A stretch of DNA of 64,000 nucleotides, taken from the NCBI GenBank assembly GCA_030649945.1, contig JAUSFE010000104.1, forward strand, positions 6,004 through 70,003, in the 5' to 3' direction. Shown one piece after another: positions 3,281 to 22,980 of this stretch (its first letter is position 1; every line of letters begins with the position of its first letter). A program made the translations under genes and the position numbers. The notes beneath the pieces were generated by a model. The model was given only the letters and a program-made list of their open reading frames with translations. It was not told the origin of the DNA and searched no databases. The DNA is from Dehalococcoidia bacterium (GTDB lineage: Bacteria; Chloroflexota; Dehalococcoidia; SM23-28-2; RBG-16-64-32).

Positions 3281-3435
3281 CGGCTCTATTGCAGCGCCCT
3301 TTGCGGCCGTGTTACCATGCGCTGGACAGTGCTGCTGTCTTGACCTTTAAGGCGGTCCCGTGAGGCTGCCAAGGAGCGATAGTGCTGACGCAGACCTGCG
3401 TCCCCGCTAAGAACACATACAGGCCGGCCGGCGGT

Positions 3436-3466
3436 CCCTCCCCCTGTTGCGGGAGGGCCTTTTGTT
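3436..3466 (+). terminator. Putative pyr-leader attenuator hairpin (intrinsic terminator) upstream of pyrR
   Basis: ccctccc-cctgttgc-gggaggg followed by ccttttgtt; its position matches the PyrR-regulated leader terminators described in Bacillus-type pyr operons. Confidence 0.5.
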
Positions 3467-5135: not shown

Positions 5136-6482
5136 ATGTCCAGGAGGTCGCGGATGACCAGCCTAGCCATTCGCGGCGGGCGGGTGATCGACCCGGCGAA
5201 CGGCGTTGACGCCGTCGCCGACGTGGTCATTGCCGACGGGCGCGTCGCGGCCGTCGGGCCGGACGCCGGCAAGGACGCCGCCGAGACGATCGACGCCCGC
5301 GGGCTCGTCGTCTGCCCGGGGTTCGTCGATATCCACGCGCACCTGCGAGAGCCAGGCTTCGAGCACAAGGAGACGATTGCGACAGGCACGCTGGCGGCGG
5401 CGCGCGGCGGCTTCACCACCGTCTGCGCCATGCCCAACACCGAGCCGCCAATCGACAACGCGGGCGCGGTCGAGTTCGTCCTGCGCACCACGCAGGCCCA
5501 GGGCGCCGTCCGCGTCCTGCCTATCGCCTGCGTCACGAAGGGCCGCGCCGGGCGGGAATTGGCCGAGCTGGCGGAGCTGGCGCAGGCGGGCGCGATCGCG
5601 TTCAGCGACGACGGTGCGCCTGTGGCCGACGCCCACCTGATGCGGCGGGCGCTGGAGTACGCCGGCATGCTCGGCGTGCCCGTCATCGACCACTGCGAAG
5701 ACCCCTCGCTGGCCGCGGGCGGCGTCATGCACGAAGGCTGGGTGTCCACCCGCCTGGGCCTGCGCGGCGTCCCCGCCTCGGCCGAAGAGGCGATGGTGGC
5801 GCGGGACATCGCTCTGGCCGAGCAGACGGGGTCGCACGTCCACATCGCGCACGTCAGCACGGCGGGCGCTGTGGACCTCATCCGCAATGCCAAGGCGCGT
5901 CGCGTCCGCGTCACGGCCGAGGTGACGCCGCATCACCTGGCGCTGACGCACGAAGCCGTTCTCACCGGCCCCGGAGAGACGCCGGGCGGACTGGCCTACG
6001 ACACCAACGCCAAGGTCAACCCGCCCCTGCGCACGCCGGCCGATACGGATGCCTGCCTCGCCGGGCTGCTGGACGGCACGATCGACTGCATCGCCACGGA
6101 CCACGCGCCGCACGCCGTCCAGGACAAGCTGTGCGAGTTCGACGCCGCGGCCTTCGGCATCAGCGGCCTGGAGACGGCGCTGGGGCTCCTGCTGACAACC
6201 CGCGTAGGGGCGGTTCGCGAACCGCCCCTACAGCGTCTGATCGAGGCGCTCACCATCGCCCCCGCACGGACGCTCGGCCTCGACGCCCGCATCGCGGGGC
6301 TGGGCACGCTGTCGCCGGGCGCACAGGGGGACGTCACGATCATCGACCCCGAGGCGGAGTGGGTTGTCGAGCCGGAGACGTTCGCCAGCAAGGGCAAGAA
6401 CACGCCGCTGGCGGGACGCAGGCTGACGGGGCGCGTGGTGGCGACGGTGTACGGGGGACGGGTGGTGTTCGATGACCGCTAA
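5136..6482 (+). CDS. pyrC: Dihydroorotase
   Basis: DIHAHLREPG...; DHAPH; amidohydrolase fold. Confidence 0.9.
   Translation: MSRRSRMTSLAIRGGRVIDPANGVDAVADVVIADGRVAAVGPDAGKDAAETIDARGLVVCPGFVDIHAHLREPGFEHKETIATGTLAAARGGFTTVCAMPNTEPPIDNAGAVEFVLRTTQAQGAVRVLPIACVTKGRAGRELAELAELAQAGAIAFSDDGAPVADAHLMRRALEYAGMLGVPVIDHCEDPSLAAGGVMHEGWVSTRLGLRGVPASAEEAMVARDIALAEQTGSHVHIAHVSTAGAVDLIRNAKARRVRVTAEVTPHHLALTHEAVLTGPGETPGGLAYDTNAKVNPPLRTPADTDACLAGLLDGTIDCIATDHAPHAVQDKLCEFDAAAFGISGLETALGLLLTTRVGAVREPPLQRLIEALTIAPARTLGLDARIAGLGTLSPGAQGDVTIIDPEAEWVVEPETFASKGKNTPLAGRRLTGRVVATVYGGRVVFDDR
6204..6231. repeat. 28-bp perfect palindrome GTAGGGGCGGTTCGCGAACCGCCCCTAC (family B) inserted in-frame within pyrC
   Basis: Perfect inverted repeat encoding ...RVGAVREPPLQ... 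inside dihydroorotase. Confidence 0.7.
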
Positions 6483-7605
6483 AGCCCTCCTCGTCCTCCA
6501 GGACGGCACCGTCTTCAGCGGCAAGCCCCTCGGCGCGCCCGCCCATTCCCACGGCGAGGTGGTGTTCTCCACGGCCATGACCGGCTATCAGGAGATGCTT
6601 ACGGATCCCTCGTTCGCGGGGCAAGTGCTGGTGCTCACCTACCCGCTGGCCGGCAACTACGGCATCAACCCGGAGGCCGTGGAGTCGAAGCGCATCCAGG
6701 TGCGCGGCCTCGTCGTGCACGAGGCCTGCGAGCGGCCCTCGCACTGGCAGTCGGAGATGACCCTGCACGACTACCTGGCGTCGCAGGACATCCCCGGCAT
6801 CGCCGGCGTGGACACGCGCGCCCTCACCCGCCGCCTGCGCCGCGAGGGGGTGACCATGGGCGCCATCACGTCCGACGAGACGGCGGGAGAGGCGCTGGCC
6901 CGTCTGCGCTCGCTGCCCGGGTACGGCGAGACGGACTTCGTGCGCGAGGTGAGCACGGACAAGCCCTACGAGTGGCAGCCTTATCCCCCGCTGGGTGTCA
7001 GGCTTCAGCCTGACACCCAGCGGCGCCACGCTGCGTCCGCCCTCCGGCGGATCGTCGTCATCGACAGCGGCGTCAAGTACAACATCATGCGCCTGCTGGC
7101 GGCGCGCGGCTGCCGGGTGACGGCGCTGCCATCGCACGCCTCCGCGGACGACGTGCTGTCGCACAAGCCGGACGGCGTCGTGTTCTCCCCCGGCCCGGGC
7201 GACCCCGCCTTCCTGGACTACCAGGTGGCGACGGTCAAGCAACTAATCGGGCGCGCGCCGGTGCTGGGCATCTGCCTGGGCCACCAGGTGCTGGGCCGGG
7301 CGTTCGGGGCGCGCACCTTCAAGCTGAAGTTCGGACACCGGGGCGCTAACCATCCGGTGCGCGACCTGGAGACGGGCCGCGTGCACATCACGGCCCAGAA
7401 CCACGGCTACGCGGTGGATCCCGACGGTCTCTCGGCGGACATCGAGGTCTCGCAGGTGCACCTGAACGACGGCACCTGCGAGGGGCTGCGGCACCGCACG
7501 GAGCCCGTCATCTCGATCCAGTACCACTCAGAGGCCTCGCCGGGGCCGCTGGACAACGTCTACGTCTTCGACCGCTTCGTGCAGATGATGGATGGCGATA
7601 GGTGA
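6472..7605 (+). CDS. carA: Carbamoyl-phosphate synthase small (glutaminase) subunit
   Basis: GICLGHQ catalytic Cys, HGYAVD, YHSEASPGP; overlaps the pyrC stop. Confidence 0.9.
   Translation: MTAKALLVLQDGTVFSGKPLGAPAHSHGEVVFSTAMTGYQEMLTDPSFAGQVLVLTYPLAGNYGINPEAVESKRIQVRGLVVHEACERPSHWQSEMTLHDYLASQDIPGIAGVDTRALTRRLRREGVTMGAITSDETAGEALARLRSLPGYGETDFVREVSTDKPYEWQPYPPLGVRLQPDTQRRHAASALRRIVVIDSGVKYNIMRLLAARGCRVTALPSHASADDVLSHKPDGVVFSPGPGDPAFLDYQVATVKQLIGRAPVLGICLGHQVLGRAFGARTFKLKFGHRGANHPVRDLETGRVHITAQNHGYAVDPDGLSADIEVSQVHLNDGTCEGLRHRTEPVISIQYHSEASPGPLDNVYVFDRFVQMMDGDR
6993..7018. repeat. 26-bp perfect palindrome GGGTGTCAGGC-TTCA-GCCTGACACCC (family A) inserted in-frame in carA
   Basis: Lies within a ~20-aa segment (QPYPPLGVRLQPDTQRRHAASALRR) that is absent from E. 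coli and Bacillus CarA between PYEW and the IVVID/VVAYDFG block. Confidence 0.7.
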
Positions 7606-7643
7606 TGTACAATAAGCGCATCAATATGTGATGAGGTGAACTG

Positions 7644-7901
7644 ATGCGCACGACGCTGAATATCGATCCGAAACTCCTCGAAAAGGTGGTTGCGATTACG
7701 GGCGAGAGGAACAAAGGGAAGGCCGTAGATCGCGCCATGGATGAGTTCCTCCGCCGGAAGGCAGTCGAAAAACTGCTGGCCGCACGCGGCAAGTTCCGCC
7801 TGCATGTCAAACACGAAGAATGGGAAGAAGCTGATCTCAAGGTCGAACTTGAGCACAAGAGGAGCAGAAGGTGGTCATCGCCGACGCGGATGTCTGGATA
7901 G
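7644..7901 (+). CDS. vapB: VapB-like type II antitoxin (Arc/MetJ-type, DUF2191-like)
   Basis: MRTTLNIDPKLLEKVVAITGERNKGKAVDRAMDEFL...; immediately precedes and overlaps a PIN toxin gene; lower GC than flanks. Confidence 0.65.
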   Translation: MRTTLNIDPKLLEKVVAITGERNKGKAVDRAMDEFLRRKAVEKLLAARGKFRLHVKHEEWEEADLKVELEHKRSRRWSSPTRMSG

Positions 7902-8269
7902 ACTACTTCGAACGTTCGTCATCACGGACCGGCCAAGCGCTCGATCGGTTGATCCGAAGCGGGCGCACGGCTGTTGCAGAACCGGTCCTGGCCGAACTCG
8001 TGCGAGGCACGCAGGGTGACGACGAGCTTCAGGAACTCAAGGAGATGCTAAGTGGGGTCCCGTACGTCGAGATGAGCCGTGAGACCTGGGTGCGGGCCGG
8101 CCGGATCGCACACGACCTCGACAGGAGGGGAACGCGAATACCGGTCGTGGACATCTTCATCGCCTCGCTGGCAATCGAAGAGGGGCACGAAGTCTTCACC
8201 CGCGACCGCCACTTCGAGCGCATTCCTGGGTTGCGTCTGTACAAGCCGAAGGGGGCTTCCGATGCCTGA
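7871..8269 (+). CDS. vapC: VapC PIN-domain ribonuclease toxin
   Basis: GTG start; VIADADVWIDY...PVLAEL...D...FIASLA: PIN acidic residues. Confidence 0.7.
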   Translation: MVIADADVWIDYFERSSSRTGQALDRLIRSGRTAVAEPVLAELVRGTQGDDELQELKEMLSGVPYVEMSRETWVRAGRIAHDLDRRGTRIPVVDIFIASLAIEEGHEVFTRDRHFERIPGLRLYKPKGASDA

Positions 8270-8738
8270 CCCCACGTACCGCCAGGCCACGATGGACGAC
8301 GCCGCCGCCATCGCCGCGATCGGCGCGCTGGTGTGGGACGAGTTCGGCGAGCGCAGCGGGCTGCCCGGCCGCATGACGGACGACGGCGTGCGCGGCCGTC
8401 TCTCCGAGTGGGGCGCCAAGGGTGCGATGTTCGTCTGCGACGCGGGCGGCGGCCTCTGCGGCTTCGCGGCCGTGCAGCCGGACCCTTCGGCAGGCTCAGG
8501 GCAGGCTCCACACCCGCGGGAGGCGGTGATGGGCGTCTGGGTGGCGCCGTCCGCGCGCGGCAAGGGCGTGGGCACGGACCTGGCGCTGATGGCCACGGAC
8601 TTCGCGCGCGCGGCGGGCTACCAGAAGCTGCGCGGCACCATCCCCGAAGGCAACGAGAGCGCGCTCTCGTTCTTCGGCGAGATCGGCAGCCTCGCGCAGA
8701 TGGTGGGCCAAGGCATGGAGTACGAGCTGCCGCTGTGA
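8262..8738 (+). CDS. GNAT-family N-acetyltransferase
   Basis: MPDPTYRQATMDDAAAIAAI...VWVAPSARGKGVGTDL (acetyl-CoA-binding motif A); ATG at 8262 overlaps the vapC stop. Confidence 0.7.
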   Translation: MPDPTYRQATMDDAAAIAAIGALVWDEFGERSGLPGRMTDDGVRGRLSEWGAKGAMFVCDAGGGLCGFAAVQPDPSAGSGQAPHPREAVMGVWVAPSARGKGVGTDLALMATDFARAAGYQKLRGTIPEGNESALSFFGEIGSLAQMVGQGMEYELPL

Positions 8739-8750
8739 GGAGATAACGTA

Positions 8751-9548
8751 ATGAGCGACGAAGCCGCCGATGCCGCGACGGTCATCCAACTGTTGAGAGA
8801 AAAACTCAAAGAATTCGACGAGAATCCCGATGTCAAGCAGTTCTCAGGAGGCACCTTCCGCGCTTTCGCGACATCGGTTGATAGTATCCTTGCGCGAGGC
8901 TTGGGCTCAGGAGGAATGAGACTTAGAACCGCGTGGCACATAGCTGCGAGCAACCTTCCTTGGCCCAACACGATGATAACACTGGGAGCGCAAGTCACTT
9001 ACTTAGAGGCCATGTTCGAGGCAAGACTTCCGGAAGTGAGGGGCACGCTGGAGGCAATCATCAGCGAGCTTGAAACATTCGGTGCCCCAGACATGCATCA
9101 GGAGACGCAGCCATCACCGCCCATTCGCCCAAGAGTTTTTATCGCACACGGAGGCGAATCGGAGGCTCTCAACAAGCTGTGCAACTTTCTCGACGAACTT
9201 GGCCTGAAGTCGTTGGTCGTCGAGCGCCTGCCCAGCGAAGGTCGGTCGGTGAACGGAAATGTAGAGCACTACCTGGACATGGCTGACTGTGCCGTTGTCC
9301 TCGCAACTGGGGACGACGTCGTCGACGGCAAGCTTCAGCCACGCGCTAACGTCCACATCGAGATCGGGCGGTTCCAGGAGCGATTCCCGCATCGGATCAT
9401 CTACCTTCTGGAGGAAGGAGCCGCCTTTCCCTCGAACGTCAGCGAGAAGGTTTGGGAGCGTTTCAGTGACAGCAACATGGAGAAGGCAATCGTCAAAGTG
9501 GTTCGTGAGGTTAGGGCGTTTGGCCTTCTTGGCGGGTCGACATTATAA
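8751..9548 (+). CDS. Two-domain protein: unknown N-terminal domain (~1-125 aa) plus C-terminal TIR-like (COG4271-type) nucleotide-binding domain; candidate anti-phage effector
   Basis: C-terminus RVFIAHGGESEALNKLCNFLDELGLKSLVVE...AVVLATGDD resembles the KVFIVHGHD...TIR-like domain family; GC ~53% versus ~70% flanks. Confidence 0.5.
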   Translation: MSDEAADAATVIQLLREKLKEFDENPDVKQFSGGTFRAFATSVDSILARGLGSGGMRLRTAWHIAASNLPWPNTMITLGAQVTYLEAMFEARLPEVRGTLEAIISELETFGAPDMHQETQPSPPIRPRVFIAHGGESEALNKLCNFLDELGLKSLVVERLPSEGRSVNGNVEHYLDMADCAVVLATGDDVVDGKLQPRANVHIEIGRFQERFPHRIIYLLEEGAAFPSNVSEKVWERFSDSNMEKAIVKVVREVRAFGLLGGSTL

Positions 9549-9607
9549 GCGTGAAGCCCGCCAGCGCTCTCACCGCCGGGCCCATCGCTCTGCGCCCGGC
9601 GGTTCCA

Positions 9608-9946
9608 CTACTCGCGGGGCCCCTCGTACACCACGCGGCCGGTGCGGATGATCTCGCGCAGGAAGGAGTGACGGCCGGGGTTATGGTACTCGCTGGACGG
9701 GTAGCCGATGGGCGCTAGCCGCCGATCGCGATCCAGGCTAGCCAGGGCAATGATCTCCTGCCGTTTCCACATGGGCACCCCTTCGAAGTCTGTTGAGATG
9801 ACCGCTACGTCAATGTCGCTATCCTCGTGCGGTCTGCCGTTCGCATACGAGCCGTACAGCACAATAGCGTCGACGTTTATCGCCGCCGCCAGGAGCCGCA
9901 CGAACTCGCCGATTACCGCTTCTAGCTCAGTCGCTGCAACAACCAC
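9608..9946 (-). CDS. Nucleotidyltransferase (MNT-type, Pol-beta superfamily) antitoxin/toxin partner
   Basis: ...IVLYGSYANGRPHEDSDIDVAV... minimal NTase motif GS-x9-DxD. Confidence 0.75.
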   Translation of the reverse strand: MVVAATELEAVIGEFVRLLAAAINVDAIVLYGSYANGRPHEDSDIDVAVISTDFEGVPMWKRQEIIALASLDRDRRLAPIGYPSSEYHNPGRHSFLREIIRTGRVVYEGPRE

Positions 9947-10290
9947 GCGTAGAACTCATTCGACTGCCTGTAGTAATTCTCAGTCGTATCGGCTGGCATT
10001 TCAAGCGGCTCATCGCCGTACCGGCTGGGGATGTATTGCTCGGTCAACTTGGCGAGCAGAGCCAATTGCTCCTGAGATATGGCCAGGCCGAGCTCAGCCG
10101 CCAGGCGGGGTAGGTCGTGAACCTTGCGGTAGGCGCCCTTCCTTTCGATCAGCCCTGCTTTCAGCAGCTTCTCTATCGCCTGGTGCAGGTGGAACAGACA
10201 ACTCAGCGTATAACCCGCTTGCCAGGCGAATTCGGCGACCGACACATCCTCGGCCGCTCGGGCTAGCCACCGCTCCGTCTCCGGCTTCAT
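9922..10290 (-). CDS. HEPN-domain protein (HEPN/MNT module partner)
   Basis: All-helical 122-aa protein overlapping the MNT gene by 25 nt; typical HEPN-MNT organisation. Confidence 0.6.
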   Translation of the reverse strand: MKPETERWLARAAEDVSVAEFAWQAGYTLSCLFHLHQAIEKLLKAGLIERKGAYRKVHDLPRLAAELGLAISQEQLALLAKLTEQYIPSRYGDEPLEMPADTTENYYRQSNEFYAWLLQRLS

Positions 10291-10330
10291 GCCCGCATCC
10301 TAGCCTCCCGTCCCGAGGGCGGTCAAACCC

Positions 10331-13674
<3,344 letters not shown>

Positions 13675-13678
<4 letters not shown>

Positions 13679-17277: not shown

Positions 17278-17940
17278 TTACTGAAGGCCGGACGCTGCCT
17301 GCCGGGCCCCGTCACGGACGATAAACCGGCAGGAGTCCGCGCCCTCGCTCTGGAACTGCGTGCACTCCACCTCGCGGCCCAGCAGGCTGCCCAGGAGGGA
17401 GAGGTGCCAGTCGCACAGGTCCCGGTGGGAGTCCACCACGCGCCGGTAAACGCAGTTGTGGTCCGCGATCTCGAACTCCCGCCCGTCGCCCGTCCACTCC
17501 GCGAAACCGCCTTCTTCGCGCAGGATGTCCGCGACGATGGCCACGCGCTCCCCCAGCGGCTTGTCGCGCACGCGGGACTCGTGCTGGCGGTAGACGCGGT
17601 CGGCCATGCGCATGAGCAGGAGCCGCTTCTTGTCCGGGGCGCTGAGGCCGGCGATGTCCTCCGCCTGGAGGGAGGCAACCTCCTCCAGCACGAGGTTGGC
17701 CAGGCGGTCGTAGCGCTTGGGAAACCTCTCCTGGCCGCCGTCGCTCAGGCTGAAAAGCAGATGTGGGCGGCCCTTGCGCTGCCTCTCCTCGCGTGAGACT
17801 ACCAGGCCGTCGCGCTCCAGCACTGCCAGGTGCTGGCGCACCGTCATGCGGGCCAGGCCGAACTCGTTGGCCAGCGCATCCACCGTGCTGTCGCCCGCGC
17901 GCTTCAGGTGAGAAAGAATACTCTCTTTTGTAGATTGCAT
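17278..17940 (-). CDS. Winged-helix (ArsR/SufR-like) transcriptional regulator with C-terminal Cys-rich sensor domain
   Basis: N-terminal HTH (...LARMTVRQHLAVLERDGLV...), four spaced Cys in the C-terminal half; adjacent to apbC. Confidence 0.55.
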   Translation of the reverse strand: MQSTKESILSHLKRAGDSTVDALANEFGLARMTVRQHLAVLERDGLVVSREERQRKGRPHLLFSLSDGGQERFPKRYDRLANLVLEEVASLQAEDIAGLSAPDKKRLLLMRMADRVYRQHESRVRDKPLGERVAIVADILREEGGFAEWTGDGREFEIADHNCVYRRVVDSHRDLCDWHLSLLGSLLGREVECTQFQSEGADSCRFIVRDGARQAASGLQ

Positions 17941-18032
17941 GTGGAAACCTTTTTCCCTCCGGCGCCGTTATAAGTATACACAACCGCGGCCGGCAGTGAA
18001 ATAGCATTTAGAAAGTCTATACAGTGCAAACC

Positions 18033-18061
18033 TTGACAGATATACCCCAGCCGGGTATAAT
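18033..18061 (+). promoter_or_regulatory. Consensus sigma70-type promoter TTGACA-N17-TATAAT
   Basis: Exact -35 and -10 hexamers with a 17-nt spacer in an AT-richer divergent intergenic region, ~75 nt upstream of the ORF at 18137. Confidence 0.55.
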
Positions 18062-18136
18062 CCGCCCGGCGATCTGTAACGTATTACCTAGAGCGATCAT
18101 CTTCATCACAAACGATGACGGAATTCCGGAGGTGGA

Positions 18137-18436
18137 ATGATGGGTAAGGCAGCAGTAGTCGAAGAGAGACGGCCCGTGGTAGAGACGCCGGTGGAAGTCC
18201 CCACCTGCCAGCACCACTGGCTGATTGAGACGCCCAGGGGCTCCACCAGCCACGGCCGCTGCAAGCGCTGCGGCGAGGACAGGGAGTTCCGCAACTCCGC
18301 CACCGATCACGTCTGGGAGGACGAGTCCGGTAGCGGCTACAACCCCTGGCGCGGGGCCCGCTCCGCCCCCAGGTCCGCCATCGACGACGACGAGGTTAGC
18401 GCCTCTTCCCCTTCTGCACCCGTCGTCATGGCCTGA
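18137..18436 (+). CDS. Small zinc-ribbon-like hypothetical protein
   Basis: CQHHW...CKRCGED Cys/His pairs; GGAGGTGG RBS; downstream of the consensus promoter. Confidence 0.4.
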   Translation: MMGKAAVVEERRPVVETPVEVPTCQHHWLIETPRGSTSHGRCKRCGEDREFRNSATDHVWEDESGSGYNPWRGARSAPRSAIDDDEVSASSPSAPVVMA

Positions 18437-20357: not shown

Positions 20358-20434
20358 CGGGGTGTAGCTCAGCCAGGTTAGAGCGCCTGCTTTGGGAGCA
20401 GGAGGGCGGCGGTTCGAATCCGCCCACCCCGACC
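20358..20434 (+). tRNA. tRNA-Pro (anticodon TGG)
   Basis: CGGGGTGTAGCTCAGCCAGGTTAGAGCGCCTGCTTTGGGAGCAGG...GGTTCGAATCCGCCCACCCCGA; 7-bp acceptor stem, TGG in the anticodon loop. Confidence 0.85.
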
Positions 20435-21767: not shown

Positions 21768-22568
21768 TTACGCCGGTTGCACTACGACCTTCTCGATGAC
21801 CAGCTGCGAGACGAGAGACGGGTCGCACTGCTGCCCGTTCATCTCGCCGTTGACTATGGCGCAGTAGTCCGGCAGAGCTCCCAGGATATCCTGGCCGGCG
21901 ATCACCTTGCCGAAAATCGTCTCCTTGCCGTCCAGCCTGGCGTCCGCCGCCAGGAGGATGCGGAACTGGCTGCCGTGCACCTCCTGGCCGCCCTCGGAAA
22001 GCGGCGGCGCCGCTACGGCCCACTGGTCGTGCTTCTCCCCGCCCGCCTCAAGGGGCAGGGAGTAGCCCGGGCCGCCCAGGCCGGAGCAGGCGGCCTGCCC
22101 GCCCGTGGAGCAGGTGGGGTCGCCGGCGACAGCGCCGAGGCCCTTGTTCACGTAGAAGAAGGCGGTGCCGTCGTAGAAACCCTTGCCGGCCAGGAAGGCG
22201 AAGCTGTTGACCGCGGAAGGGGCATCCGTCGCCAGCTGGATCTTGATCTTGCCCTTGTTCGTTTCCAGGGTGGCGATATACGGCCTCGTCCCGTCGATGG
22301 TCCTGGCCGGCCCATCGGCGAAGACGGCCGACGCCGGCGTCGGCTCGGGTGTGGACTGCGTGTCATCGATTGGGGGCAGATTGGATCTGTTGGAGCTGCC
22401 AAAGCCGGAGCCCAGCCCCACGGCGGCCATACTGGCGATCATCACCACGATGAACGTGACGTAGAACAGTTTGACGTTGAAGAGCAGGTTGATTGGAAAC
22501 GGCGGCTTTGCCTTCCTGGGTCCTTCGTATTGCGCCGGGCCACGCCGCCGCCTGCGCTGTCTGGGCAA
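21768..22568 (-). CDS. Cyclophilin-type peptidyl-prolyl isomerase with N-terminal TM anchor
   Basis: ...FFYVNKG..., ...GSQFRILLAD..., and ...DGKETIFGKVIAGQD... cyclophilin motifs. Confidence 0.8.
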   Translation of the reverse strand: MPRQRRRRRGPAQYEGPRKAKPPFPINLLFNVKLFYVTFIVVMIASMAAVGLGSGFGSSNRSNLPPIDDTQSTPEPTPASAVFADGPARTIDGTRPYIATLETNKGKIKIQLATDAPSAVNSFAFLAGKGFYDGTAFFYVNKGLGAVAGDPTCSTGGQAACSGLGGPGYSLPLEAGGEKHDQWAVAAPPLSEGGQEVHGSQFRILLAADARLDGKETIFGKVIAGQDILGALPDYCAIVNGEMNGQQCDPSLVSQLVIEKVVVQPA

Positions 22569-22677
22569 GTTGCAGTCACCTCTTCACTGATGGGTGCATT
22601 CAGTATAGCAGGTCGCATGATTACGCTCTCCGGCGGCCGGCCACTGTAACAGGTTCCCGTTCTCTCACATCTTCATA

Positions 22678-22980
22678 TTGAGAAATCACGACACAGGGAT
22701 GGGGAGACCAATCATGATGACGGCGACACAGCGAGCGAGCAGCACGGACGACGCCTGGGCCGACCTGAGCGGCCGCTGGTTCTTTGCCTGGAGGATGGCC
22801 GCGGCCTGCGAGGGCGCGCTGCGGGAGGTGCACATGGCGATGTCCCGCCAGCACGACTCCAACCGCGCGCAGGCGCTGGACAAGGTGAGCACCCTCTTGC
22901 GCCGCGAGCTGATGCGCTGGGTGCGCCGCGGCGAAGCGCTGGACATGATCGTCGAACACCTGCCGCACAACGAGGACTGA
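22678..22980 (+). CDS. Hypothetical protein
   Basis: 100-aa ORF; weak. Confidence 0.25.
   Translation: MRNHDTGMGRPIMMTATQRASSTDDAWADLSGRWFFAWRMAAACEGALREVHMAMSRQHDSNRAQALDKVSTLLRRELMRWVRRGEALDMIVEHLPHNED

Follow-up and report, generated by a model that had tools for sequence, protein, structure and literature searches.

A TIR-like candidate defense protein with a widely shuffled N-terminal module in a variable slot of the Dehalococcoidia pyrimidine operon

A gene that we call TIRL lies between carA and carB, in the pyrimidine biosynthesis (pyr) operon of an uncultured member of the Dehalococcoidia, and encodes a helical module joined to a TIR-like domain. The DNA analyzed, here called the window, is a stretch of 64,000 nucleotides (nt) from contig JAUSFE010000104.1 (positions 6,004 to 70,003). 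Judging from sequence comparisons and structural models, we consider it fairly probable that TIRL is a single-chain sensor-effector, an NADase of the abortive-infection type, which travels as mobile cargo of a hotspot in this essential operon. An earlier reading of the letters alone, the original prediction, had proposed a novel defense effector or sensor. A defense effector or sensor is still the reading that we judge best; the catalytic residues are kept, and the N-terminal domain is not a housekeeping one. The word "novel," in contrast, has to go, because the full length of TIRL matches PDC-S35 of the PADLOC database, which makes it a member of a family that was already listed as a candidate of defense type.

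Results

TIRL is a real gene with a TIR-like C-terminal domain

The open reading frame (ORF) is exactly the one first described, on the plus strand from ATG to TAA and 265 amino acids (aa) long (Table 1), and in its product a linker joins a TIR-like domain to the helical module at the N terminus. A GGAG Shine-Dalgarno motif can be read at 8739-8742 (plus strand). It immediately follows the GNAT stop codon (8736-8738) and precedes the ATG by 8 nt; the ATG itself is 12 nt past that stop. The NCBI protein P0001, "nucleotide-binding protein [Dehalococcoidia bacterium]," from a Dehalococcoidia metagenome-assembled genome, is 100% identical to TIRL, and 218 homologues were found at E ≤1e-3, about 40 of them full length with 38-68% identity. 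Because of these homologues, the identical NCBI protein, and the Pfam match given below, TIRL is not a chance ORF, and we regard it as confirmed as a real gene. A scan of 7400-10500 for sigma-70 promoters and terminators found none on the plus strand near TIRL, a result that is uninformative for Chloroflexota. In tblastn searches, a phage collection gave only one weak match (28% identity, to the TIR domain), and a plasmid collection gave 1086 records with PF10137-type relatives, all at <36% identity. One Burkholderia match from these searches (H2) looked full length and carried no annotation.

The Pfam family PF10137 (STIR clan) matched aa 128-238 with an E value of 4.8e-15 (56 bits, against a gathering cutoff of 24.7) over profile positions 1-117 of 119, and it was the sole Pfam match of the protein at E ≤1. 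When a profile of 43 full-length homologues was compared with the PDB, a single family was significant, Cap12/TIR-STING (SfSTING, 7un8; E 1.4e-4). The AlphaFold model of full-length TIRL (pLDDT 83) has beta-alpha repeats in the C-terminal domain. Its best Foldseek match was the TIR domain of SfSTING (E 8e-5, probability 1.00), and the next matches were SARM1, TLR, and plant TIR domains and also the N-glycosidase DNPH1. The pattern from which the TIR-like domain had been proposed, RVFIAHGGESEALNKLCNFLDELGL...VVLATGDD, is present at aa 127-189 (beginning at nt 9129-9132). Thus, Pfam, the PDB profile, and Foldseek bear out a TIR-like C terminus of the CAP12/Pycsar type, and both profile and fold place it with TIR domains rather than in a non-TIR flavodoxin-like family.

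The predicted active site is conserved

In the hidden Markov model (HMM) alignment, P-R198-A-N200-V-H-I-E204 of TIRL falls on P-R78-D-N80-V-V-F-E84 of SfSTING (residue numbers of PDB chain 7un8 are offset by 8 residues). In SfSTING, R78 and N80 coordinate the phosphodiester and ribose of NAD+, and E84 is catalytic (PMC9402430). R198, N200, and E204 are all invariant among the 43 full-length homologues; among nonredundant relatives, the active-site Glu is kept in 78 of 78 and the complete R/N/E triad in 73. E204 would therefore be the catalytic Glu on helix alphaC, and R198 and N200 the NAD+-contact residues, that together are the hallmarks of TIR NADases. About 23 catalytic-domain residues are under strong purifying selection in homologues that are 38-68% identical. 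From this conservation, we propose that the domain acts as an N-glycosidase, most likely an NAD+ hydrolase, in which E204 would be catalytic and R198 and N200 would hold the substrate; another N-glycosidic substrate is possible.

The same invariant residues bear on whether TIRL could be a nonenzymatic TIR scaffold or a nucleotide-binding adaptor. The historical COG4271 label ("predicted nucleotide-binding protein") and the database names would suit such a protein, and many animal TIRs are indeed adaptors, but invariance of the catalytic Glu and of the Arg and Asn that contact NAD is not expected in a pure scaffold. We therefore give this reading very little credence.

The N-terminal domain is a widespread module with exchangeable partners

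In the AlphaFold model, the N-terminal domain has helices at aa 8-29, 36-67, and 79-110, and L15, W39, E108, and G111 are near invariant. Modeled alone, it gave the same picture of three long helices (pLDDT 89.7, pTM 0.83). No Pfam or NCBIfam match was found for it, and nothing in the PDB fold search was better than E 0.49, so by these searches it is not a known housekeeping domain. The initial statement that the N-terminal ~125 aa match nothing thus stands for Pfam, NCBIfam, and the PDB, but it fails for PADLOC, where the model PDLC05005 matches TIRL from aa 10 to aa 259 (E 2e-20).

When the N-domain profile was run against 1.84 billion representative proteins, 546 matched at E ≤1e-3 and 98 at E ≤1e-10. 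The domain is therefore a widespread module and not an orphan. Fusion partners were tallied among the best 150 of the 546 matches. The TIR-like domain of TIRL followed a single or tandem N-module in 35 of these, and a further 45 proteins of at least 230 aa had a different C terminus: Hypoth_Ymh of the HEPN family in 12 (best E 6e-37), PLDc_2 in 5, a DpnII/MboI restriction endonuclease (REase) in 4, another PF10137 domain in 1, and no Pfam domain in the others. The effector halves of these siblings match the PADLOC models Aga_HEPN, PD-Lambda-3_B, and PDC-S05, and their N-terminal halves match positions 1-121 of the PDC-S35 model. Because one N-module is shared among interchangeable toxic enzymes, the layout is that of single-chain immune sensors, and the pattern would fit a sensor plus an exchangeable toxin. 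In TIRL, the three-helix module on its flexible linker may be the regulatory or sensing part that restrains the enzyme.

Some relatives are longer. TIRL ORFs of 359-397 aa (L059, L073, L079, and L087) form a set of long slot forms, and representative proteins of similar length (P0244, P0247, and P0339) have two tandem N-modules before the TIR-like domain. The HEPN and PLD siblings, too, often have the N-module in tandem. The tandem-N relative L059 has, alongside PF10137, a weak DUF4062 match (E 2e-4) that is below the Pfam cutoff.

TIRL occupies a recurrent slot next to carB

The pyr genes were placed by tblastn at 90 loci encoding relatives, and this gave 80 nonredundant TIRL loci with the window counted. 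(A contig scan with narrow peptide patterns gave only 6 loci and is no measure of prevalence in Dehalococcoidia.) carB or pyrK is immediately downstream of TIRL on the same strand at 45 of the 56 loci with a usable downstream flank (~80%), and carA, GNAT, or pyrC is upstream at 35 of the 51 with a usable upstream flank. Spacing is tight, mostly -10 to +33 nt from the TIRL stop to the carB start and mostly -1 to +19 nt from the end of carA to the TIRL start. Relatives with a different or duplicated N-domain are found in the same slot position. The slot is also held by proteins with the TIRL N-domain and another C terminus: P0241 (N-module plus Ymh-HEPN) between the carA 3' end and the carB 5' end, P0252 (N-module plus PLD) between pyrC-DUF6414 and carB, and P0242 (N-module with an unassigned C terminus) directly upstream of carB.

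No partner gene is conserved beside TIRL in the 80 loci, which counts against a TIR domain that makes a signal (cyclic ADP-ribose [cADPR]-like or a related nucleotide), as ThsB of Thoeris does, for a receptor or effector encoded elsewhere in the genome. Bacterial TIRs can produce signals, SpbK yields N1-cADPR without an adjacent receptor gene, and the active-site residues of TIRL fit either outcome. However, the characterized TIRs of the PF10137 type (Cap12/TIR-STING and PycTIR) are terminal effectors that deplete NAD+, and the siblings of TIRL carry directly toxic HEPN, PLD, and REase domains in the same place, as expected if the C terminus is the killing module. A signal-making role is accordingly quite unlikely in our estimation.

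An unbiased sample comprised 7 genomes (L091 to L097) that were picked only by CarA identity (77-85%) and long contigs. GNAT follows carA in all 7, as it also does in L001, L003, and L007, and TIRL is absent from all 7; a search for TIRL remnants in them returned none at E ≤0.01. The GNAT-carB interval of these genomes holds other genes or no gene (Table 1). The slot proteins of L092 and L093 (371-375 aa) share a PD-(D/E)xK-like motif (DILYID...VETK) and match PDC-S11 (E 1e-12 and 5e-11) with no Pfam match, and hhalign found no relationship between this PDC-S11-like occupant and the TIRL N-domain (probability 0.2). vapBC is also present in 3 of the 7 (L092, L093, and L097), and an MNT/HEPN pair is also present in L007, L031, L093, and L096. 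Present in all of these genomes, GNAT seems to belong to the core of the pyr operon as a lineage-specific gene. These gene orders give the picture of a layered cargo slot in which carA-GNAT and carB are the core flanks and the cargo exchanges, with the N-module-plus-effector family and toxin-antitoxin pairs dominating this cargo.

The divergence of TIRL is incongruent with that of its flanks: carB is 83% identical and TIRL 41% identical in L003, and the values in L001 are 81% and 62%. Outside pyr operons, relatives were found in defense or mobile settings at L088, L090, L013, L083, and L040 (Table 1). At L088 (3847-6242) and L090 (1264-3659), a SMODS nucleotidyltransferase gene (E 7e-28), a gene for a two-transmembrane SLATT_4 protein, and a TIRL relative form a trio on one strand; this relative has another N-domain and is 57% identical in the TIR domain. 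The gene content of the trio suggests a CBASS-like or "conflict system" operon that encodes two effectors.

TIRL is compositionally foreign in its slot

TIRL has a GC content of 0.561 and a GC content at third codon positions (GC3) of 0.65, whereas the pyr genes of the window are at about 0.70 and 0.93. The original remark that the gene has the lowest GC of the islet is essentially right: its GC3 is the lowest there, with vapB tying on total GC (0.558) and vapC at 0.627. The MNT/HEPN pair, like vapBC, also has a GC below that of the flanks, whereas GNAT has the native composition (GC 0.734, GC3 0.93). At 45 of 45 loci, the flanking pyr genes exceed TIRL in GC, by a mean of 12.4 points and by 25 points in GC3. 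TIRL is thus compositionally foreign in the slot.

Strict synteny had raised the possibility that TIRL is a housekeeping gene of the operon. That candidate, a core pyrimidine gene, was rejected because all 7 CarA-selected relatives do without TIRL and carry other cargo and because GC is below the flanks at all 45 loci (in the window, GC3 is 0.65 versus 0.93). A less strict form of this idea ties TIRL to pyrimidine or nucleotide metabolism, with the protein hydrolyzing or binding a nucleotide (for example, a pyrimidine nucleoside monophosphate, as DNPH1 or LOG/PpnN-type enzymes do) or regulating carbamoyl-phosphate synthetase. It draws on the slot itself (carB or pyrK directly downstream at 45 of 56 loci and carA, GNAT, or pyrC directly upstream at 35 of 51, many relatives being only -10 to +33 nt from carB), on the three non-TIR proteins that bring the TIRL N-domain to the same slot, on DNPH1 among the fold matches, and on a PyrR-site-like leader (see below) that suggests pyrimidine-controlled transcription. 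Yet the 7 CarA-selected genomes have unrelated genes in place of TIRL, and the GC3 of TIRL is 25 points under its flanks. Close full-length relatives are found outside pyr operons, next to a restriction-modification (RM) methylase (L013) or in an integrase-bearing element (L040), and exchange of the C-terminal domain for a HEPN RNase, a PLD nuclease, or an REase would be senseless in a metabolic enzyme. A metabolic role is therefore unlikely.

The carA-carB gap of the window records successive insertions

In the window, pyrR, pyrB, pyrC, carA, vapB, vapC (PIN), GNAT, and TIRL are followed by an MNT and HEPN pair on the minus strand and then by carB, pyrK, several further genes, and pyrD. As first reported, no cyclase, SIR2, or ThsA gene adjoins TIRL among these neighbors. 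The original prediction took the surroundings for an "islet" and overlooked their main feature, a cargo slot in the pyrimidine operon that recurs between carA/GNAT and carB and that holds TIRL in most relatives and alternative defense-like genes in others.

Table 1. Features of TIRL, its surroundings in the window, and the corresponding positions in relatives (window coordinates unless a locus is named)
Feature	Position	Strand	Evidence or content
TIRL gene	8751..9548	+	ORF list and translation; ATG start, TAA stop, 265 aa, intact
N-terminal three-helix module	8751..9098 (aa 1-116)	+	AlphaFold; N-domain profile
Pro-rich low-confidence linker	9084..9131 (aa ~112-127)	+	pLDDT <50 at aa 118-121, no secondary structure
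TIR-like domain, PF10137 CAP12/Pycsar type	9132..9524 (aa 128-258)	+	Pfam, PDB profile, Foldseek
Predicted active-site motif R198-A-N200-V-H-I-E204	9342..9362	+	HMM alignment to 7un8
carA, upstream core flank	6472..7605	+	Pfam CPSase_sm_chain and GATase
vapB-vapC (PIN) toxin-antitoxin pair	7644..8269	+	Pfam VapB_antitoxin E 3e-9, PIN E 7e-15
GNAT acetyltransferase, upstream slot flank	8262..8738	+	Pfam Acetyltransf_1 E 4e-11
Decayed duplicate of carB 5' end	9552..9625	+	Alignment with carB 5' ends of window, L001, and L003
MNT (nucleotidyltransferase) and HEPN pair	9608..10290	-	Pfam Polbeta/NTP_transf_2, HEPN, E 3e-20
carB, downstream core flank	10331..13678	+	Pfam CPSase_L domains
GNAT-carB interval, L091			DUF4436-like gene and small ORF
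GNAT-carB interval, L092	8242-9357		371-aa PD-(D/E)xK-like protein, PADLOC PDC-S11
GNAT-carB interval, L093	8644-9771 (PDC-S11-like protein)		Small ORF, 375-aa PDC-S11-like protein, and MNT/HEPN
GNAT-carB interval, L094			No gene, gap of ~500 bp (2.78-Mb contig)
GNAT-carB interval, L095			121-aa ORF
GNAT-carB interval, L096			74-aa ORF and MNT/HEPN
GNAT-carB interval, L097			168-aa ORF
TIRL relatives, L088 and L090			Immediately downstream of SMODS and SLATT genes
TIRL relative, L013			Beside Eco57I-type methylase
TIRL relative, L083			Beside Mrr_cat gene
TIRL relative, L040			Element with integrase and D5-type primase

Directly past the TIRL stop is a decayed copy of the carB 5' end, about 75 nt long and with 6-nt and 5-nt indels; a direct repeat (D1) pairs 9576-9602 with 10368-10394. 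Because of this scar, TIRL must at first have bordered on carB, the order seen in L001 and L003, and MNT/HEPN must have been inserted later. The sequence indicates that the insertion involved a duplication or recombination at the carB start. TIRL-carB spacings also form a second cluster, at 670-920 nt, which suggests that about 10 further loci have inserts of this kind. At the place of the scar in L091, a 130-aa ORF is called that has a weak N-terminal match to CPSase_L_D1, and an MNT-like tblastn match is on the opposite strand.

The scar, which shows repeated insertions, and the accumulation of vapBC and MNT/HEPN in the same gap would also fit a selfish, addictive, or hitchhiking toxin cassette that brings no antiphage benefit. 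Such a cassette would be kept because deletions in an essential operon are counterselected, and a place between essential genes would indeed hinder its loss. However, about 23 catalytic-domain residues are under purifying selection, no antitoxin or immunity partner is conserved, and the models that the TIRL family and its sibling effectors match derive from genes located within RM, BREX, or DISARM loci. This explanation, too, strikes us as quite improbable.

Upstream of pyrR and overlapping its start (3340-3466), an RNA resembling a PyrR-binding site (Rfam RF00515) scored 46 bits (E 0.0013), below the gathering score of 54. The match is consistent with PyrR attenuation control of the TIRL-bearing operon, with which TIRL is probably cotranscribed.

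In relatives, other junctions of the operon also carry variable inserts (L003, 4304-5146; L095, 5454-6011; L091, 5490-6014; L097, 5421-6011; L100, 5058-5789). A Trypsin_2 gene was found between pyrB and pyrC, and a UDG-family gene or ORFs of 174-196 aa without a Pfam domain were found between pyrC and carA. A DUF6414 gene precedes the N-N-PLD protein. From these gene orders, the whole pyr operon seems permissive to cargo at gene boundaries. A literature search on carA/carB defense hotspots gave noisy matches only. Elsewhere in the first 24 kb of the window there are two further GC dips (17800-18200 and 22400-22800, ~0.56-0.60 versus ~0.70) and a tRNA gene (20358-20432, 71 bits).

Discussion

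We propose that TIRL would be silent as a monomer or dimer and would become active once its TIR domains cluster into higher-order assemblies. Clustering-dependent activity is expected because it is the rule in the characterized TIR NADases SfSTING, PycTIR, SpbK, and Swarozyc. Binding of a trigger by the N-module (by analogy, an oligomeric phage protein) would bring about TIR clustering, and clustering would deplete the NAD+ of the infected cell and arrest its growth. TIRL itself would circulate horizontally as cargo of a carA(-GNAT)-carB recombination hotspot in Dehalococcoidia pyr operons. The cargo part of this proposal follows from the variability of the slot, the foreign composition of TIRL, and its incongruence with the flanks. 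The proposal as a whole is favored also because relatives outside the operon are in defense or mobile contexts and because vapBC and MNT/HEPN are coresident in the gap.

Several observations weigh against this proposal. The arrangement of the two domains is uncertain in the full-length model (pTM 0.54). DNPH1, a deoxynucleoside monophosphate hydrolase, is among the fold matches, and the TIR/NDT fold with the same Glu serves other N-glycosidase chemistry; NAD+ is therefore a presumed substrate of TIRL. The family that TIRL matches, PDC-S35, is itself a predicted candidate, and our literature search found no paper mentioning it. It is also unusual for defense genes that ~80% of the assessable relatives are in one fixed slot of a nucleotide biosynthesis operon, often with start and stop codons that overlap or nearly abut, and the fixed slot could mean a functional tie to pyrimidine metabolism. 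Finally, TIRL GC correlates with host GC (r 0.65 over 45 loci), and this argues for long residence in the lineages rather than frequent transfer. A low GC that tracks the host suggests either that TIRL has long been resident and is incompletely ameliorated or that AT-rich or rare codons are selected for, and such codons might possibly hold a toxic protein at a low level.

The slot position would itself be functional if the N-module family guards carbamoyl-phosphate synthetase or the pyrimidine supply. The N-module would then bind CarA or CarB or sense a metabolite of the pyrimidine pathway. Phage hijacking or inhibition of nucleotide synthesis would fire the carried toxin, whether a TIR NADase, a HEPN RNase, or a PLD or REase nuclease, and PyrR-controlled coexpression would match the guard to the demand for nucleotides. 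This idea, which we hold to be unlikely, is weakened by the close full-length relatives that are found outside pyr operons (L013 and L014). If it were true, it would be a new sensing principle, with an immune sensor family coupled both genetically and physically to a core biosynthetic enzyme.

Already known were TIR-like NADase effectors, TIR sensors encoded by a single gene, and the listing of this family as a PADLOC candidate. What appears to be new is, above all, a hotspot for defense-type cargo at the carA-carB junction of an essential operon in Dehalococcoidia, and besides this an active-site prediction for PDC-S35-type proteins and a definition of the N-terminal module with its range of effectors. 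If TIRL is indeed a single-chain sensor-effector, a compact single-gene TIR-like NADase with a widely shuffled and hitherto undescribed three-helix sensor module would join the bacterial immune proteins, and the PDC-S35 candidate would gain a mechanism that can be tested, along with a predicted active site and a domain logic. The carA-carB junction of these abundant uncultured bacteria would behave like a defense hotspot within a tightly packed operon, its slot alternately holding TIR, HEPN, PLD, and PD-(D/E)xK candidates and toxin-antitoxin pairs. "Guilt by embedding" would then extend from defense operons to housekeeping operons and offer a simple way to mine uncultured bacteria with streamlined genomes for new defense genes. 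Whether immunity is wired to the supply of nucleotides would become a testable question. To specialists, the genomic arrangement would come as a surprise.

Comparison with known systems

PDCs are 145 predicted candidates drawn from genes embedded in BREX, DISARM, or RM loci (bioRxiv 10.1101/2024.01.29.577857), and PDC-S35 is a single-gene candidate with five models (PDLC05003-05007). The PDLC05005 match to TIRL (72 bits) spans profile positions 5-255 of 264 and is of moderate similarity, whereas the other four models match only from aa ~92-116 onward, that is, the last helix, the linker, and the TIR domain. PDC-S35 was defined from RM, BREX, or DISARM loci in RefSeq genomes; TIRL, in contrast, is in a pyrimidine operon of uncultured Dehalococcoidia.

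With Cap12/TIR-STING and PycTIR, TIRL has the Pfam family, the fold, and the R-x-N-x3-E motif in common, and both SfSTING (PMC9402430) and PycTIR enzymes are switched on by oligomerization or filament formation. However, Cap12/TIR-STING and TIR-SAVED proteins have a STING or SAVED domain and an adjacent CD-NTase, none of which was found for TIRL by Pfam or among its window neighbors. TIRL as a Cap12 equivalog was rejected, with an NCBIfam score of 14 bits against a cutoff of 450. It differs from PycTIR in that its N-domain is a three-helix bundle with no match to a cyclic nucleotide-binding domain and no cyclase gene is adjacent, and it differs from Thoeris in having no adjacent effector gene and no partner gene conserved across the 80 loci.

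The AbiJ-NTD1 to AbiJ-NTD5 modules (Anantharaman et al. 2013, PMC3710099) are N-terminal domains of ~100-140 aa, of which NTD1, NTD2, and NTD5 are mostly alpha-helical. They are fused to Ymh-HEPN, HKD/PLD nucleases, REases, TIR, or a "flavodoxin-fold nucleoside deoxyribosyltransferase," and the role proposed for them is to detect phage components and to hold the toxin in check (PMC3710099). This fusion repertoire agrees with that of the TIRL N-module, and no AbiJ HEPN fusion was found among the 45 non-TIR N-module proteins examined; the resemblance is one of architectural logic, and we take it as a lead.

Swarozyc and Evangelion (DUF4062) are single-protein defenses in which a TIR-like NADase is joined to auxiliary domains and activated by a phage structural protein; for DUF4062/Swarozyc NADases, it is the phage portal. 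TIRL has no DUF4062 match and so belongs to a different family within the TIR/NDT assemblage. In SpbK of Bacillus subtilis ICEBs1 (266 aa), a linker of 18 aa connects the helical N-domain (1-94) with the TIR domain (113-266), and docking of its N-domain on the phage portal clusters the TIRs and turns on the NADase. TIRL is nearly equal in size and layout (265 aa, with a bundle at 1-110, a linker of ~16 aa, and the TIR-like domain at 128-258). No sequence relationship between the two is detectable: SpbK was absent from the PDB profile matches at E ≤1 and from the top 50 fold matches, and it has a TIR of a different subfamily and four N-domain helices versus the three long ones modeled in TIRL. 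These portal-activated proteins, SpbK and DUF4062/Swarozyc, are the architectural precedent that further inclines us to read TIRL as a single-chain sensor-effector. By analogy, SpbK would be the closest functional counterpart of TIRL, in the sense of "works like" and not of "is a member of."

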